Of a stretch of 64,000 bases of DNA, positions 32,567-39,202 are shown in pieces; position 1 is the stretch's first letter, and every line of letters begins with the position of its first letter. Made by a program: the position numbers and the translations under genes. Under the pieces are notes generated by a model. That model searched no databases. It was not told the origin of the DNA and saw only the letters and a list, made by a program, of their open reading frames with translations. This DNA is from a bacterium. GTDB taxonomy: Bacteria > JACRDZ01 > JAQUKH01. The stretch lies in contig JBFMCF010000054.1 of NCBI GenBank assembly GCA_040754625.1, positions 548-64,547 of the forward strand. Direction: 5' to 3'.

Positions 32567-32887
32567 TTATTTATTCTGGCGGTTAGTAATTTTTTCAATT
32601 TCTGCTTCTTTAACTTTAACAAGAGCTTCCAATTTTTTTATATCCTCGCATAATTTAATAATTTCATCATCTTTAATTTTATGATATCTATATACTTTTT
32701 TCCCAATCAGGTTAAAATTTCCGTCCATTTTGTGTTTCAGATTTATTATATCCAGTTTTAATTTTCCCGTATGATAAAAATTTACCCCCTCTTCTTTTCC
32801 CTTCTTCGCAAGCCCGACTACCGTCTCGCCGAGCTTTCCCAGGTTCCTCTTTGCATCTTCAAATATATCATCTTTTTTGTCCGGCAT
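32567..32887 (-). CDS. hypothetical coiled-coil protein
   Basis: 106-aa ORF between aroE and comEC. No recognisable family. Confidence 0.35.
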   Translation of the reverse strand: MPDKKDDIFEDAKRNLGKLGETVVGLAKKGKEEGVNFYHTGKLKLDIINLKHKMDGNFNLIGKKVYRYHKIKDDEIIKLCEDIKKLEALVKVKEAEIEKITNRQNK

Positions 32888-34391
32888 AAAATCCCTTCCT
32901 GTTTATATATAAAAGTATAATAATATAATAGCACAAAATAAAAAATAAACCAGCACTTTGTATATGAAAATTCGAATAAGGAAGCTGCGCGAAAAAAAGA
33001 ACGATTTTCTCCAGTGTTATAAGTAAAAACCAGTTTGTGTCCGCCAATATTTTTACAAGAAAAGAAATTTTTGAAAAAATGACCATTGAAATACCCAGAT
33101 ACAAAATAATACCTACAAGCGGGACGACAAAAATATTCGCTATTACCGATATTAAACTGACCTGCTGAAAATAAAAAGCGCCTACAGGCCACACTCCGAC
33201 CTGAATTGCCAGAGAAAGTAAGAAAAGCTCTTTAGCGCTGTGAGAAAATTTACCCATATAATTATCAGGGAAATTCATGTTTATCCTTTTTAGATCTTCC
33301 ATTTTCCCCTTCTCTTCTTTATTTATTTTTTTTATTTGGATTTTTTCAAGCTCCGGATATATCAATATCATGGATAAAACGCAAATAAAAGAAAGCTGAA
33401 AACTGATCGAAAAAAGGGCCAGCGGGTTGAACAATAAAATAATCAAAGCGGCCAGAGATAAACTGTTTAAAACATCGTTCTCCCGCTCCAGGATGTATCC
33501 AAAAAAAATGATGGTTAATGTAATGGCCGAACGGACCACAGGAGGATTCATTCCTGTAGCCAGGGAATAAAACCAAATCATTAAAATACTTGGAATAACC
33601 GCTATTTTTCTAGGTAATCTCAATATACCCACTAAGATCATGAAACTTATTGTTCCTATCAGGCCGACATTCATTCCCGATACCGCAAGGATGTGCACGG
33701 TTCCCGTATCCCTGAATATCTTCTGAACCCCTTCAGGAATAGTCTGATCGCCGCCCAGAACAATCCCGCTGATCAAAACAGACTCCATCCTAGGGAGATA
33801 ATAAAAATATAAATTTTGAATATATTTTTTGAAAGAAATACTTGATTTTTTTATGCTATTTCCTTTACCCTCTCCGATTTTCTCTACCTTTGAACCGCCC
33901 GTATTGGAAACCGCGTTAATATCCTCGCTTAAAAGATAAAAAGGCGGTTCTTCCAGTGCTCCTTTGAATTTAACAATATCGTTATAGGAAAATATTCGCC
34001 CGCCATAGGCCCTGAGCCGAATAAAACCTTTTATTTCTTCGTCGTTAATATTTTTCAGTGATAAATCATAATCCGTCCATTTGGGATATATTTTAGGCTC
34101 ATCCGCGATCTTCCCGGTAATTTCCACCTCGTTTCCGATAAATCTTTTAAGATTTTCGGACTTGGGGCTTTGGATTGAGTTTAAAGTAAGAATAAAACCA
34201 GAGGATAAAATAGCCAGGCTCAGAAAGATATTACAAATTATCTCTTTTTGCTTAATAAAGAAAAAAACCGAAAAAAGAAAAGAAACAATTAGAAATAGGA
34301 AAATTTGATAAAACGGCAGATAAAAATAACGCCCCAGAATAATACCAAAAATAAAAATGCTCAGAACTTTAAGGCATGGTTGTTTCGTCAT
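32868..34391 (-). CDS. comEC: ComEC/Rec2-family DNA internalisation channel protein (no metallo-beta-lactamase domain)
   Basis: 507 aa, polytopic, with a ...HILAVSGMNVGLIG... competence motif. Confidence 0.8.
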   Translation of the reverse strand: MTKQPCLKVLSIFIFGIILGRYFYLPFYQIFLFLIVSFLFSVFFFIKQKEIICNIFLSLAILSSGFILTLNSIQSPKSENLKRFIGNEVEITGKIADEPKIYPKWTDYDLSLKNINDEEIKGFIRLRAYGGRIFSYNDIVKFKGALEEPPFYLLSEDINAVSNTGGSKVEKIGEGKGNSIKKSSISFKKYIQNLYFYYLPRMESVLISGIVLGGDQTIPEGVQKIFRDTGTVHILAVSGMNVGLIGTISFMILVGILRLPRKIAVIPSILMIWFYSLATGMNPPVVRSAITLTIIFFGYILERENDVLNSLSLAALIILLFNPLALFSISFQLSFICVLSMILIYPELEKIQIKKINKEEKGKMEDLKRINMNFPDNYMGKFSHSAKELFLLSLAIQVGVWPVGAFYFQQVSLISVIANIFVVPLVGIILYLGISMVIFSKISFLVKILADTNWFLLITLEKIVLFFAQLPYSNFHIQSAGLFFILCYYIIILLYINRKGFYAGQKR

Positions 34392-34399
34392 TTGACAAA

Positions 34400-34636
34400 T
34401 TAATCCAAATCAGCCACTTTTGTAACTTGCCTGTATGTTATATCTTTGAATTCATTAAAATGCGCGTATCCGCACTTAATTTTTCTTTTTTCGCTGACTT
34501 TCAATTCCTGCCCTTCCGACTTTGTTTCCGCGACAAAGTAAATCGTTTTCTCATTCTTTTTGACTAAAGCCCAGTCCGGGTTATAATCTCCGATAGGTGT
34601 TTTAATTTTAAACCAGAATGGAAGTTTAAAATAAAA
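34400..34636 (-). pseudogene. C-terminal PD-ExK nuclease segment of the Type III Res-like gene, in frame with 34637..37024 but separated from it by a TAA
   Basis: Same-frame translation directly after the TAA at 34637-34639 gives FYFKLPFWFKIKTPIGDYNPDWALVKKNEKTIYFVAETKSEGQELKVSEKRKIKCGYAHFNEFKDITYRQVTKVADLD*. This has a Res-type PD...E-x-K motif. There is no start codon of its own. Confidence 0.6.
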
Positions 34637-37024
34637 TTAAATATCGTCCCTGTTTTCACATTCCTTCGCGAATTCGTACTCCACATTGGAATCGAGCGGC
34701 ATAAGCGCGCTATAAATGGTTTTACCCTGGTTGGATATATTAAAAGTCAGGCCGTTCACATGGATATCATATTCTTCAAACAACCGCATTTCATACTCCC
34801 TGTTCCCTATTTTTTCATATTTGATACCGTCAATCATTAGCCCGGAAAGAACATCTTTGACGGCTGTAACAGTGTTATCGAGAAAAAGCTGCGGATTAAT
34901 GAACACATCGTTTATTCTGCCTGAGTCTTTTAGTATTTCCAGAATTGTCGCCCGCGTGAGTTCCGTGCGTTCCTGTATATAAAAAAGAATATCGGGAATT
35001 TGAAATATGCTGTCAATTGAAGTTGTATAAGAAGCTCTTATTTCAGCAATAATGCCGGATTCGTCGAATTCCAAAGCCGTTTTTGTGGTTTTGATTACGG
35101 CTTTTTTAATCAAAGGCATATTCCGCACTGCTTCTGCGGCTTTTTGTATCAGATCAAAGGTCTGGTATTCCACTTTGTAATTTGTCTGATATTTTATTTT
35201 ATCCCAGATTTGTTTAAATTTCTCATCCAGCTCAAAACCTTTGCGATACCTGACTGTTTTTCTTTTTTCCTTGTTCTTAATCCTGCCCGCGAAGGATACC
35301 CCGCAATCCTCTTCGATTTCTGTCTGAAGCTGTTTGGCAAACTCCTCATACGATTCATTGGCGATAACAGTCAATCTGTTCACACCGGGATCCTGGACAC
35401 GATTCCCTTCCTGATTTACGGAAAGCCTCAGGCCTCGCCCGATTTCCTGTCTTTTTTTAAGCTCGGATTTTGTTTCATTTAGCGTGCATATCTGAAACAC
35501 ATTCGGATTATCCCATCCCTCCCGCAACGCCGAATGGCTGAAAATAAAGCGGAGCGGCTCATTGCTGTCAAGAAGCTGTTCCTTGTTTTTCATTATCAGC
35601 TTAAAGGTATCGTCATCATCCAGGGTATTGCCTTTCGTGTCTTTCCATTTTCCTTTTTTATCCTTCGAAAAATAACCATTATGGACCTCTTCCGCTTTAA
35701 ATGGAAGTAACCCTTTATATGCCGATTTTTCTGAAATTTCATCAAATATTTTTTCGAACCATAACGCGAATTTACCTTTAACCGCGTTCCCGGCGGCATC
35801 ATAACTTCGATAATTCGCCACCCTGTCGATAAAAAACAACGACAAAACTTTTATCCCTTTATCTTTTAGTTTTCTCTCCTTTAAAAAATGCTCTTCCACC
35901 GCCTTTCCTATCTGTATTTTCATTACCTCATCGGAAAATCCGCCGAACGTATTGCCGATAAATAAGTTTTCGCCGTTTGAAAGCTCAATAAATCCCTCCG
36001 CGGCATCTATACCGTTAATAATGTATCCATTTTTGTATATTTCCCGTTTGCCGGATAACTCATATAAATCATCGCCGACTCTTGCGGTGACTGACTTTCT
36101 TTTTACCCCGTCTTTTGTATTAATATCTATTTTTATTTTTGCCGAGGTGCTGGTTTTGGCAGTATTTACCTTTTCGAGACAAATAAAACCCCCGTTAAAA
36201 TCATTTTCTGTGACAACGGAATCCACCTCAATTTGTTTCACGAGCCCGAGATCATACGCCTTGACCGGATCGAGACTATAAACCATGTTGTAGCGATTTG
36301 TATGCGTGGCGGAATAACGCAGGGTACACAGGGGATTCAAATTTCCCACCGCTTTTTTCCTGATATCAGTCTCCATGTTTTGCGGTTCATCGACAATAAC
36401 AATCGGCATTGTTGCCTGGATGAATTCAACAGGTTTTTTCCCTGTAAGCTTATCGTTGGGTTTATTGATTATATTTTCGTCTTTGGCAAAAGAATCAATA
36501 TTGATGACCAATATCTGAATATTATTGCTGACGGCAAAATTTCTCAGATTTGAGACCCGTTTTGAATCGTATATCTGAAAATTCACGGGTATCTTATCGT
36601 AAAGGTTCTGGAAATGATCAAATGTGATTTCAAGATTTTTAAGGACACCCTCGCGAATGGCAACGGATGGGACAACTATAACGAATTTTTTAAAACCATA
36701 CTTTTTATTAAGTTCGTAAATCGTGCGCAGATACACATAAGTTTTGCCCGTCCCCGTTTCCATCTCAACGGAAAAATTCAATCCGTCCAATTTCTCGGTT
36801 ATGGCAATTTCATTTAACCTTTGTATATCCCTTAAATTTTTGAAAATCTGTTCTTCGCTGATAGAAAGCCTGTTGCCAATGCCATCTTCGTTCAAAAACA
36901 AACTTTCATTTTGAAATGAAAATCCGAAATCACCCTGATTTAACGGCTGGCCCTCGAATATATTGACAATGGAGTTTATGGCATCGTGCTGGTATTGCTG
37001 GTTTGGGTCGAAATGAAGTTTCAT
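34637..37024 (-). CDS. Type III restriction enzyme Res-subunit-like SF2 helicase (795 aa up to an in-frame TAA)
   Basis: N-terminus MKLHFDPNQQYQHDAINSIV... and motif I ...METGTGKTY..., DEPQN (DEAH-like) and helicase C motifs are typical of EcoP15I-type Res. There is no mod gene in the operon. Confidence 0.8.
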   Translation of the reverse strand: MKLHFDPNQQYQHDAINSIVNIFEGQPLNQGDFGFSFQNESLFLNEDGIGNRLSISEEQIFKNLRDIQRLNEIAITEKLDGLNFSVEMETGTGKTYVYLRTIYELNKKYGFKKFVIVVPSVAIREGVLKNLEITFDHFQNLYDKIPVNFQIYDSKRVSNLRNFAVSNNIQILVINIDSFAKDENIINKPNDKLTGKKPVEFIQATMPIVIVDEPQNMETDIRKKAVGNLNPLCTLRYSATHTNRYNMVYSLDPVKAYDLGLVKQIEVDSVVTENDFNGGFICLEKVNTAKTSTSAKIKIDINTKDGVKRKSVTARVGDDLYELSGKREIYKNGYIINGIDAAEGFIELSNGENLFIGNTFGGFSDEVMKIQIGKAVEEHFLKERKLKDKGIKVLSLFFIDRVANYRSYDAAGNAVKGKFALWFEKIFDEISEKSAYKGLLPFKAEEVHNGYFSKDKKGKWKDTKGNTLDDDDTFKLIMKNKEQLLDSNEPLRFIFSHSALREGWDNPNVFQICTLNETKSELKKRQEIGRGLRLSVNQEGNRVQDPGVNRLTVIANESYEEFAKQLQTEIEEDCGVSFAGRIKNKEKRKTVRYRKGFELDEKFKQIWDKIKYQTNYKVEYQTFDLIQKAAEAVRNMPLIKKAVIKTTKTALEFDESGIIAEIRASYTTSIDSIFQIPDILFYIQERTELTRATILEILKDSGRINDVFINPQLFLDNTVTAVKDVLSGLMIDGIKYEKIGNREYEMRLFEEYDIHVNGLTFNISNQGKTIYSALMPLDSNVEYEFAKECENRDDI

Positions 37025-37254
37025 TAATTGTCTTTTAATTTTTGGATTGATTTTTCTTCAAAATCAGTATCATCTTCAATTATCGAATCATCGCATACAT
37101 CATAATCAATAGCATGAATGATTTCACAAATCGTCTTTCCTTTTTTCAATAATACCTTTGAAAGTTCCGGGAAACGTTTTTTTATGTCACTACAAAATTC
37201 TTCGAGTTCTAAGCAAAATCTTTTATCAAAATAATCCCAATGTCCGCCACTCAT
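37024..37254 (-). CDS. hypothetical small acidic protein (76 aa)
   Basis: Its stop overlaps the Res start (TAATG). Acidic C-terminus. No family recognised. Confidence 0.5.
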   Translation of the reverse strand: MSGGHWDYFDKRFCLELEEFCSDIKKRFPELSKVLLKKGKTICEIIHAIDYDVCDDSIIEDDTDFEEKSIQKLKDN

Positions 37255-37297
37255 TATAAATTAATCTCCTCTATTCAAATTCTATATAAATCAAGCA

Positions 37298-38047
37298 TTA
37301 AGCAACTAGTCTTAATTTTCTTTCTTCTTTCCTCGTCCAAGGGAATTCAATAATACCGTATTCAGCAATAGCCTGGGATACTTCCGATGGAATTTCTTTT
37401 TCAAGGTCATTAAGAATCATTATCCCTTCATTATTGCGGGCAAGTTTTGTATCTTCAAAAGCAAAAAGATGCGCCATAATATTCTGTTTTTTAGGGCTAT
37501 TTACGACCTTTAAAATTCTCTCGCCGGCTTTATCCGAAGGTGGTATTAAAATATCAAATTTATGCTGGAAAGTGCTTTTTCCCTGCAATATAATATTTCG
37601 TGAAAATCGAACGGAATTCTGCATCAGAAAATTAACAACATCCTCAAGAAAGAAAGCCTCCACTTTCGGTTCAGCCAAAACAAATAAATCATCTACTGAT
37701 AAAACAGCTTGTATTAAATTATGTTTTTTAACAGGGAATGTCGAGGGTGTCGCAAAGGTCATAAGTTCATTGCCTTTTACCATAACTCCAAATCCATTTA
37801 ATATGATTTCCAGCTCTTTCTTCCTAGAAGGAGAACTTAAATCAAGTCCCTCCATTTCTAAATTTGATATAGTTTCGCCGTCATCCGTCATGATTATTTT
37901 ATCATTCGCGTCCTTTTTTAAATAAATCTGTATATAATCATTTATATGATTAACAAATGGTGTGGTAATTTCATAATAACCATTAATTTCTTTATAGGTG
38001 ATTTTTTGTTTTAACCAGTCAATATAACTCTGAATAAGTTCTTTCAT
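37298..38047 (-). CDS. hypothetical protein, DUF1828/DUF1829-like
   Basis: 249 aa. N-terminal ...YIDWLKQKITYKEINGYYEITTPFVNHINDYIQIYL... and C-terminal ...VRFSRNIILQGKSTFQHKFDILIPP... resemble the DUF1828/DUF1829 pair, recalled from memory rather than searched. ATGA overlap with the upstream ORF. Confidence 0.5.
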   Translation of the reverse strand: MKELIQSYIDWLKQKITYKEINGYYEITTPFVNHINDYIQIYLKKDANDKIIMTDDGETISNLEMEGLDLSSPSRKKELEIILNGFGVMVKGNELMTFATPSTFPVKKHNLIQAVLSVDDLFVLAEPKVEAFFLEDVVNFLMQNSVRFSRNIILQGKSTFQHKFDILIPPSDKAGERILKVVNSPKKQNIMAHLFAFEDTKLARNNEGIMILNDLEKEIPSEVSQAIAEYGIIEFPWTRKEERKLRLVA

Positions 38048-38532
38048 ATAAATAATGTCTCCTTAACTTTGGGCATAGAAATTACATTGCAATATTCTAA
38101 AAATTTATTCATTATTTCATAAAAACTTTGGTTTGTAATATTTAAAAATAGTTCTATAGGCACAGCCCATTTATGATTAAATCCTTCCACATATATGTGA
38201 ATATGAGGGCAAACTACAACAACGCCATTGTATGATTGTAAAATATCAAGAGGAGGATTTTCAACTTCCGGATTAGGATGTGAGGGGCCTTCTATATCTA
38301 ATCGCCTTAAAACAAACGACTTTCTTGCTCTGTTTTGATAGGTTATTTTTTCCGCTTTGATACTTGCTCTCGTTATATCAAACAAAAATAATTCTCTTTT
38401 ATCTTTTGATGTAAATGGCAAAACTAATTTCTCGCCCTGGCAGGGAAAATTAAATTCCTTGTTTCCCTCTTCAGGAATTTTTTCCATCGCGAAGAAAAAA
38501 TCTGCGTCCTTTTGGCTTAAAAAATGTGGCAT
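38044..38532 (-). CDS. hypothetical protein (about 162 aa)
   Basis: Start set at MPHFLSQKD..., which is preceded by GAGGAG. The ORF track extends to 38565. No family recognised. Confidence 0.5.
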   Translation of the reverse strand: MPHFLSQKDADFFFAMEKIPEEGNKEFNFPCQGEKLVLPFTSKDKRELFLFDITRASIKAEKITYQNRARKSFVLRRLDIEGPSHPNPEVENPPLDILQSYNGVVVVCPHIHIYVEGFNHKWAVPIELFLNITNQSFYEIMNKFLEYCNVISMPKVKETLFI

Positions 38533-38827
38533 CTTTATTTTCTCCTCACACCGTCTTAAACTCAATCCCCGCGTCCTTCATCTGCAACGCGGTATTGGTT
38601 TTTAATTGATCATTATTCTTAAATAATCGGTCTAATGTGATAACCTTATGAGGTTTTTTAGAAATTACATTCTTAATGATTTTTTCATTAATTTTTTCCA
38701 AAACGAGGGCAATTTTCCATTTATTCCAGTTCGTTTCTTACTCATAATCGCAAATTCTACAGTAAAATCATATAAAAATCAAACTAAGTTTTTACAAAAT
38801 TTTTACATGATCCGTTTCCTAAGAATA

Positions 38828-39202
38828 TTATTTGGTTTCTTTGTCATTTACGGTGATTTGCTCTCTTATTTTACTGAACTTTTTCTCCCCGATACCGCGG
38901 ACTTTTTTAATATCTTCGATAACCTTAAATCCCCCGGACTTTTCACGGTACTTTATAATTTCCGCGGCGATCTTCGGCCCTATTCCCGGAAGCGTGTCCA
39001 GCTCCCCGATTGAGGCGGTGTTAATATTTATTTTTTTGTTTATTGTCCTTACGGCGCCATGATTTGCCAGCCTTTCTGTTTTAACGGATTCGAAAGAAGT
39101 GAGGGCCCCTCTGCCCCTCGCCCACTGGACACCCAGGCCCAGAATAATCGCGCCGGTTAAAAATAGAATAATGATCTTTTCCTGTTTGGTAAAATAAAAC
39201 AT
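38828..39202 (-). CDS. comEA: ComEA-like DNA receptor (TM + helix-hairpin-helix)
   Basis: 124 aa. ...INTASIGELDTLPGIGPKIAAEIIKYRE... HhH motifs. Confidence 0.8.
   Translation of the reverse strand: MFYFTKQEKIIILFLTGAIILGLGVQWARGRGALTSFESVKTERLANHGAVRTINKKININTASIGELDTLPGIGPKIAAEIIKYREKSGGFKVIEDIKKVRGIGEKKFSKIREQITVNDKETK

Follow-up and report, generated by a model that had tools for sequence, protein, structure and literature searches.

An apparently intact PDC-M24 candidate defence cassette, the probable cargo of a decayed type III restriction-modification operon

The stretch of DNA analysed here, which we call the window, comprises 64,000 nucleotides of a metagenome-assembled bacterial contig (JBFMCF010000054.1, positions 548 to 64,547; assembly GCA_040754625.1), and our subject is a cluster of minus-strand genes that separates comEA from comEC in it (Table 1). 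Read from the comEA side, the cluster consists of the remnant of a type III DNA methyltransferase gene (mod), three small open reading frames (ORFs) and an interrupted gene for the helicase-nuclease (res) of a type III restriction-modification (RM) system. As judged from their sequences, ORF1 and ORF2, whose products we call proteins A and B, are an intact instance of the catalogued candidate defence cassette PDC-M24 of PADLOC, and ORF3 encodes a small acidic protein. The original prediction had described three coupled small ORFs within 37024-38565, and the ORF scan confirms them as real genes on the minus strand. The TGA of ORF1 and the ATG of ORF2 overlap as ATGA (38044-38047), an AGAGGAG Shine-Dalgarno sequence precedes ORF3, and the TAA of ORF3 overlaps the ATG of res (TAATG); the junctions fit a single predicted transcription unit. 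For ORF1, the mechanical call starts at a TTG (38565), but the true start is most likely the ATG at 38532, which gives 162 amino acids and is preferred because homologues of 158-161 amino acids have the same N-terminus and a GAGGAG lies upstream of it.

Both members of the pair belong to described families. Protein A matches the Pfam family DUF6978 (PF22398, E 6e-34) and the PADLOC model PDC-M24A (PDLC04538, E 2.6e-46; residues 16-172 on model positions 3-145 of 146), and the earlier statement that this protein has no recognisable family was therefore wrong. The 249-amino-acid protein B had been described as resembling DUF1828 and DUF1829 in its two terminal stretches, and Pfam bears this out for the N-terminal (E 8e-25) and the C-terminal part (E 1.5e-20); in addition, it matches PDC-M24B (PDLC04539, E 1.6e-86; residues 2-249 on model positions 5-255 of 255). 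A and B are neighbours on one strand, A being the upstream gene, and A-B in this window keeps all conserved residues but one. PDC stands for "phage defence candidate"; PDC-M24 was defined by Payne et al. (2024, 10.1101/2024.01.29.577857), who drew the candidate from genes embedded in other defence systems and list it in their supplementary table as cassette CAS_00098 (FAM_00129>>FAM_00065), marked "Assign as candidate PDC-M24."

Relatives of ORF2 were gathered from 80 loci, one genome per species, at 38-74% identity. They are found in Bacteroidota, Ignavibacteriota, Bacillota, Planctomycetota, Acidobacteriota, Proteobacteria, Chloroflexota, Nitrospirota, candidate phyla and three archaeal orders; the archaeal relatives of PDC-M24B (L010, L018, L026 and L076; 41-45% identity) come from Methanosarcinales, Methanophagales and Methanotrichaceae, and their presence indicates that the cassette crosses domains. 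In a hidden Markov model (HMM) search an ORF1 relative lies directly upstream of the ORF2 relative in 75/80 loci, usually overlapping it, and Pfam scans of two genes on either side revealed no third conserved partner of the pair. At 28 loci (35%) A-B is co-directional with, and at most 6 kb from, another system (typed by Pfam from its seed proteins), namely type I RM in 16, where the typical order is hsdM-hsdS-A-B-hsdR, type III RM in 8-9, a DUF1156/DUF499/SNF2 system in three and TOTE in three; none of these host systems occurs within 6 kb in the other 52. The Res clade of the window was found near ORF2 relatives in only five of the 80 loci (L001-L004, L006). The original prediction had proposed a co-occurrence analysis of DUF1828/DUF1829 genes with the helicase and had named a lack of conserved linkage as refuting; by that criterion a role as helicase subunits fails for ORF1 and ORF2. 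Among the embedded cases, three (L011, L019, L046) have A-B between a DUF1156 methylase and a DUF499 ATPase, beside an SNF2 helicase with helix-turn-helix and NOV_C domains, and from these domains we infer that they represent the Hma-type system of Payne et al. In three others (L020, L021, L052) a TOTE-type archaeo-eukaryotic primase-helicase directly follows A-B, and two of these loci (L021, L052) are part of a type I RM operon with a YhcG/DUF1016 nuclease gene.

The operon around the cassette in the window can be understood from four loci with an ORF2 relative of at least 70% identity (L002, L003, L004, L006), in which Mod (613-682 amino acids) is followed by variable genes, A, B, further variable genes and Res (874-884 amino acids); intact relatives of the operon keep a normal Mod methyltransferase for specificity. 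With the Mod proteins of these four loci as queries, tblastn matches only their last 59 residues in the window, at 38725-38549. This remnant, which had been overlooked, lies directly upstream of ORF1 and consists of the last 59 codons and the stop, in a frame that is open only from 38737 (the stop of comEA is at 38828); it matches the C-terminus of N6_N4_Mtase Mod proteins. Nearly all of mod thus appears to have been deleted, and the complete Mod that defines a type III RM system is missing. Res in turn matches PADLOC REase_III (E 5.5e-276, model positions 1-594 of 989), NCBIfam PRK15483 (294 bits, below the cut-off of 564) and Pfam ResIII/DEAD, with an intact superfamily 2 (SF2) helicase part, and is 62-77% identical to the four Res proteins of 874-884 amino acids and 57% to a fifth (L001, 896 amino acids). 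By tblastn the Res proteins of these relatives align over their whole length in a single reading frame, from 37024 to 34403. Only one stop interrupts the 874 codons of this frame, and the alignment continues through it: it is a TAA at codon 796 (34637-34639), where the homologues have Glu (four) or Ala (one). The stop falls directly before the PD..ExK core, beyond it all nuclease motif residues are kept (..NPDWALV..IYFVAETKS..), and there is no restart codon near the TAA; the C-terminal PD-(D/E)xK nuclease would not be translated. What had been called a Res-like gene is indeed a helicase gene, but not an intact one, and the nonsense change looks recent if it is no assembly error. Lacking both Mod, the specificity and methylase subunit, and a translated nuclease, the host restriction enzyme is predicted to be dead. 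The locus may therefore be a snapshot of turnover in which the host enzyme is dead and the cargo intact, which argues that the cargo functions, or is retained, independently of that enzyme.

That other genes take the place of PDC-M24 in related operons became clear from a metagenome scan with the N-terminus of Res, which yielded 80 loci at 67-83% identity (L088-L167). None of them has a relative of A, and one contains a weak DUF1828 fragment. Fifty-four of these loci hold both mod and res, and in 51 of the 54 genes are inserted between the two, across a gap of 0.3-6.6 kb (median 3.1 kb); of the 119 cargo ORFs, 111 are co-directional, and by sequence the ORFs form 58 clusters. PDC-M24 is thus one cargo among many that can replace one another between mod and res in this clade. 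Matches to defence genes among the cargo include AriA, GajA, PtuA, OLD-type ATPases, HEC-01A, NsnB and AbiLi, as well as Ppl/PDC-M49A-like proteins, Schlafen-AlbA_2/HATPase_c_4, GmrSD, TIR, Fic and YhcG. The commonest cargo, present in 13 loci, is a pair of about 875 (Ppl/PDC-M49A-like) and about 390 amino acids (Schlafen AlbA_2/HATPase_c_4). PDC-M24 can also share the slot: in L002 an AAA_15 ATPase lies beside it, and in L004 (11426-14871) it adjoins a metallo-beta-lactamase-fold protein and a ThiF(E1)-JAB fusion, a pairing reminiscent of ubiquitin-like conjugation defence modules. A further observation concerns the end of Mod, whose last 22-24 residues (..DQLKTN..LQM.DAG.EFK..) are 71-100% identical when L086 and L087 are compared with L002-L006, against 35-60% for the rest of the protein; this tail could be a contact to Res or a recombination anchor for cargo exchange.

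The predicted structure of protein B points to a nuclease-type fold. Its AlphaFold2 model has a predicted local distance difference test score (pLDDT) of 90.0 and a predicted template modelling score (pTM) of 0.52, the latter leaving the relative placement of the two domains uncertain. The C-terminal half contains a helix, three strands, a helix and a strand (H133-143, E149-155, E161-168, E177-182, H187-204 and E207-212; H, helix, E, strand), which is the alpha-beta-beta-beta-alpha-beta order of restriction-endonuclease-like nucleases. Foldseek returned VC1899, the cyclic tetra-adenylate (cA4)-activated Card1, Bax1, Can2 and EndoMS as top matches in the PDB (E 7e-5 to 3.5e-3, probability 0.89-1.0, TM 0.26-0.38), with TM-scores which mean that about one domain of B superposes on each of them. 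This half of B therefore models as a PD-(D/E)xK nuclease-type fold. At least 95% of 81 sequences keep E135, D136, D165, E176, R177, D199, R204, N213 and D214, and the N-terminal domain has an invariant polar set of its own (E26, T29, N36, D37, Q40, D55, D56, R75, H109, Q113, D120). The matches to Card1 and Can2 prompted us to consider DUF1828 as CARF-like, which we rejected since its predicted helices and strands do not follow a Rossmann-like order and, by the TM-scores, only one domain superposes.

Protein A is modelled as a beta-rich domain (pLDDT 90.9, pTM 0.87) for which Foldseek finds no neighbour in the PDB (best E 0.66) and, among viral models, a sole match to an uncharacterised siphovirus protein (E 1e-3). 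Single-sequence and profile searches of A and B against PDB chains gave nothing meaningful, and relaxed Pfam scans of A and of the two halves of B gave no clan-level hint. Among the residues of A conserved in at least 95% of 71 sequences are D79, H85, N87, P88, H110, H112 and E116; the His/His/Glu cluster among them (H85, H110-x-H112-x3-E116) resembles a metal site. Its H-x-H-x3-E pattern is also like cupin motif 1, but a cupin assignment was discarded as Foldseek matched none of the many cupins in the PDB. At L051 (2047-3351) the DUF6978 homologue is an ORF of 434 amino acids, which might reflect either an N-terminal fusion or extension or an artefact of ORF calling in a high-GC genome. The profile and structure searches proposed earlier as a check thus yielded families for ORF1 and ORF2 and nuclease-like neighbours for B, and no structural relative of A in the PDB.

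ORF3 stands apart from the pair. The acidic C-terminus ascribed to its product is real (net charge -7 overall and -9 over residues 44-76, isoelectric point (pI) 4.7), and the protein matches no family in Pfam, NCBIfam or PADLOC. An exhaustive HMMER search recovered a family of 113 cluster representatives (E <= 1e-3), nearly all small and matching residues 1-74. The family invariably begins with MSGG and has an acidic loop (consensus D-W-D-x-S-G-D) that may be akin to DxDxDG calcium-binding loops. Some members also match a PHROG of unknown function (phrog_6724; seven of 37), and the seven distant homologues examined are all found on phage-like contigs, in long arrays of small genes that run in one direction and are mostly unannotated, with neighbours that include an integrase, a 5'-3' exonuclease, an HNH protein and an SNF2 helicase; a single-sequence search of viral contigs found no relative. 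The closest relatives occur in another setting. In L086 a protein of 59% identity (P0144) is encoded between Mod and a Res of the same clade, after a DUF2326 cargo gene, and its stop overlaps the start of Res; L087 is organised in the same way, but its contig ends 35 codons into Res. A relative of 66% identity (P0143, L085) follows an AAA_15/DUF3696 ATPase, the downstream gene being cut by the contig end, and the family HMM also matches ORFs upstream of Res in L104 and L153. These two are the only relatives in the 80 Res-selected loci (78/80 have none), and the 80 A-B loci contain none (0/80). ORF3 accordingly accompanies Res, or moves as a small cargo of its own, and is not associated with A-B. 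It appears to be separate from the cassette and to represent a sub-branch of a family found mostly in phage-like arrays that has settled directly upstream of this clade's Res. A functional link to Res is possible, and a modulator of Res is our leading guess for its role.

The composition of the region fits an acquired origin: G+C drops to 32-33% over 37-39 kb compared with roughly 36-42% in the flanks. The neighbours of higher G+C are housekeeping genes (hflX, hemE/H/Y, ubiB). Neither an integrase, a tRNA nor flanking direct or inverted repeats mark an insertion (repeat scans; whole-window tRNA scan), promoter and terminator scans remained at background level, and scans for Rfam families and tRNAs gave no match anywhere in the window. 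The former res stop lies 8 nucleotides ahead of the ATG of comEC (34391), a spacing that probably lets comEC be transcribed through the island. A link to competence, suggested by the position between comEA and comEC, was considered and dropped, since 160 related loci gave one marginal ComEA-like match and no ComEC.

Table 1. Genes and gene remnants between comEA and comEC (positions in the window)
Feature	Position	Strand	Basis
comEA	38828-39202	-	ORF list of the window
Type III mod (DNA methyltransferase) remnant	38546-38737	-	tblastn with Mod proteins of relatives
51-amino-acid ORF, part of the mod remnant	38546-38701	-	ORF list
ORF1, protein A, DUF6978 / PDC-M24A, 162 amino acids	38044-38532	-	Pfam, PADLOC
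ORF2, protein B, DUF1828+DUF1829 / PDC-M24B, 249 amino acids	37298-38047	-	Pfam, PADLOC
ORF3, protein C, 76 amino acids, acidic, unnamed small-protein family	37024-37254	-	HMMER family, charge
Type III Res helicase-nuclease gene, 795 codons to premature TAA	34637-37024	-	PADLOC, NCBIfam, Pfam, tblastn
Untranslated 3' part of res in the same frame, encoding the PD..ExK nuclease core	34400-34636	-	Frame and homologue alignment
comEC	32868-34391	-	ORF list

Taken together, these observations make it probable, in our view, that A and B form a self-contained PDC-M24 cassette carried as cargo in a decayed type III RM operon, and that they are not subunits of the helicase. A type III RM operon with A-B as cargo in its mod-res interval would have inserted between comEA and comEC and then decayed. 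Translational coupling would supply A and B in matched amounts, and the two might act as a complex in which B joins a PD-(D/E)xK-type nuclease domain (DUF1829) to an N-terminal sensor or substrate-binding domain (DUF1828), and A, as a compact beta-rich partner, serves in sensing or gating or as a second catalytic subunit. The pair would act against incoming nucleic acid without depending on the restriction enzyme beside it and might thereby cover targets that escape methylation-based restriction. Such a nuclease-based, RM-independent role in defence is suggested by the fold, the conserved residues and the genomic company of the genes. Several points weigh against this picture. The nuclease assignment depends on modest fold scores, E176 is followed by a conserved Arg, and the Lys of the canonical (D/E)xK motif is not conserved in the family, so that B could be a non-catalytic binder. 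Moreover, the only characterised DUF1829 protein, DS-6B, has been proposed to be antitoxin-like and not a nuclease (PMC13092281). As protein A has neither a structural nor a sequence neighbour, the role given to it is a guess. In the branch nearest to the window A-B always occurs with this RM clade (L001-L004, L006), which leaves room for a local functional tie, and the TAA in res could be an assembly error, the contig being metagenome-assembled. Finally, the searchable literature reports no experimental test of defence by PDC-M24; a cold-seep study assayed other PDCs.

The original prediction saw the three small proteins as specificity, sensor or control subunits of the helicase, and one might add that they stand in for the missing Mod. 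Such a role would agree with the tight coupling of the genes in one operon, with the presence of Res in 5/5 loci of the closest B branch (at least 70% identity) and with the fact that Bax1, a structural neighbour of B, is a nuclease partnering the SF2 helicase XPB. The co-occurrence counts nevertheless largely refute it: 75 of the 80 A-B loci are without this Res clade and none of the 80 Res loci has A-B, while a full Mod lies upstream in all intact relatives, the same slot holds 58 unrelated cargo clusters and Res itself is broken in the window. Given the rarity of Res near the pair, its absence from Res loci and the diversity of the slot, ORF1 and ORF2 are not helicase subunits, and for the three proteins together we regard this explanation as highly improbable; for ORF3 a link to the helicase is possible. 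Alternatively, the pair might be a guardian in the manner of PrrC, silenced by the flanking ATP-dependent restriction complex and released as an abortive-infection nuclease when an anti-restriction protein of a phage inhibits that complex. The 35% of loci in which the pair sits within a methylation-based system (type I, type III or DUF1156/DUF499) would suit such a role, for which PrrC within EcoprrI and PARIS are precedents (review PMC12707154). We nonetheless think it unlikely, because 52/80 loci have no such neighbour within 6 kb, hosts of at least three unrelated architectures make a specific protein-protein latch improbable, and in the window the host RM is dead while the pair is well conserved.

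A toxin-antitoxin or addiction pair, one that keeps mobile DNA stable without acting directly on phages, with the DUF1829 domain of B as DNA-binding antitoxin or regulator and A as toxin, would account for the overlapping two-gene layout, the small first gene, the wide horizontal spread, the missing (D/E)xK lysine of B and the antitoxin-like proposal for DS-6B of HipAD. We doubt that it is correct, as B keeps the full invariant acidic set typical of a metal-dependent active site and the embedding among known defence cargo favours defence; HipAD is itself a defence system, so that the two readings overlap. As for ORF3, it might be a phage-derived DNA mimic or other anti-restriction-type protein that restrains Res, for instance during establishment in a new host. 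Its low pI and the charge of its C-terminal third would fit, as would the phage-like arrays around 7/7 distant homologues, the members that match a PHROG, and the position of the close homologues beside Res, which sit directly upstream of it with a stop/start overlap here, in L086 and in L087. This proposal seems to us rather unlikely: ORF3 shows no similarity to Ocr, ArdA or any Pfam family, it is absent from 78/80 close Res loci, and MSGG together with the D-x-D-x-S-G-D loop is closer in appearance to a motif that binds a metal or ligand than to charges arrayed in the shape of DNA.

Returning to the pair as autonomous cargo, it gives DUF6978 and DUF1828/DUF1829 a concrete frame, that of an autonomous two-gene cassette with a putative nuclease-type effector, and the mod-res slot of this clade appears as a cheap place to seek new systems. 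It is tempting to speculate further that A is a His/His/Glu-metal enzyme of an unseen fold which forms a new immune module targeting nucleic acid with the two-domain B, that the mod-res junction is a dedicated slot where this clade exchanges defence cargo, and that ORF3 is a phage-derived regulator of Res, a combination to which we give only a small chance. If it were true, A could make or process a small signal that is read by DUF1828 and switches on the DUF1829 nuclease in a Card1/Can2-like manner, or, alternatively, A could recognise modified phage DNA that escapes methylation-based restriction.

Among known systems the closest is PDC-M24 as described by Payne, Hughes, Fineran and Jackson (2024), with the same full-length matches of A and B, order, strand, adjacency and embedding in a larger defence operon; the difference is that the host is here a type III RM system, and a degraded one. 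Type III RM was not surveyed for embedded genes in that study (10.1101/2024.01.29.577857). In their genomic setting A-B resemble TgvAB and BrxU, GmrSD-like type IV nuclease modules that are likewise nested co-directionally in type I RM or bacteriophage exclusion (BREX) systems; TgvAB has two genes and BrxU is one protein, and both function autonomously while complementing the system that hosts them (PMC11411939). A-B, however, have no sequence or domain relation to them and lack DUF262 and DUF1524, and dependence on modification is for A-B only a possibility. The gene for the anticodon nuclease PrrC is nested between the restriction genes of EcoprrI, a type Ic RM system, just as A-B are nested here (PMC12707154), but PrrC is almost always embedded and is latched by the host enzyme, whereas A-B are free-standing in about two thirds of the loci and unrelated in sequence. 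Card1, Can2, VC1899, Bax1 and NucS/EndoMS appear to share with the model of B the plan of an N-terminal sensor or binding domain and a C-terminal nuclease, although none has detectable sequence similarity to B, in whose family the ExK lysine is not conserved. DS-6B of HipAD (DUF3037+DUF1829) shares DUF1829 with B and is one half of a two-gene system whose role in defence has been validated; it is paired with a HipA-like kinase and not with DUF6978, its N-terminal domain differs, and AlphaFold3 predicts it to bind the kinase and, more weakly, DNA (PMC13092281). For ORF3, comparison with DNA-mimic anti-restriction proteins of the Ocr/ArdA type revealed no sequence or profile similarity (Pfam, NCBIfam, PADLOC). 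With type III RM systems of the EcoP15I type, the Res of the window shares the helicase part and the remnant the C-terminus of Mod, but cargo separates mod and res in 51/54 relatives and both genes are defective here. What is new in this locus is therefore not a class of system: it is a catalogued candidate, known from bacterial and archaeal genomes and often embedded in restriction systems that use ATP, in a type of host, type III RM, that had not previously been surveyed.

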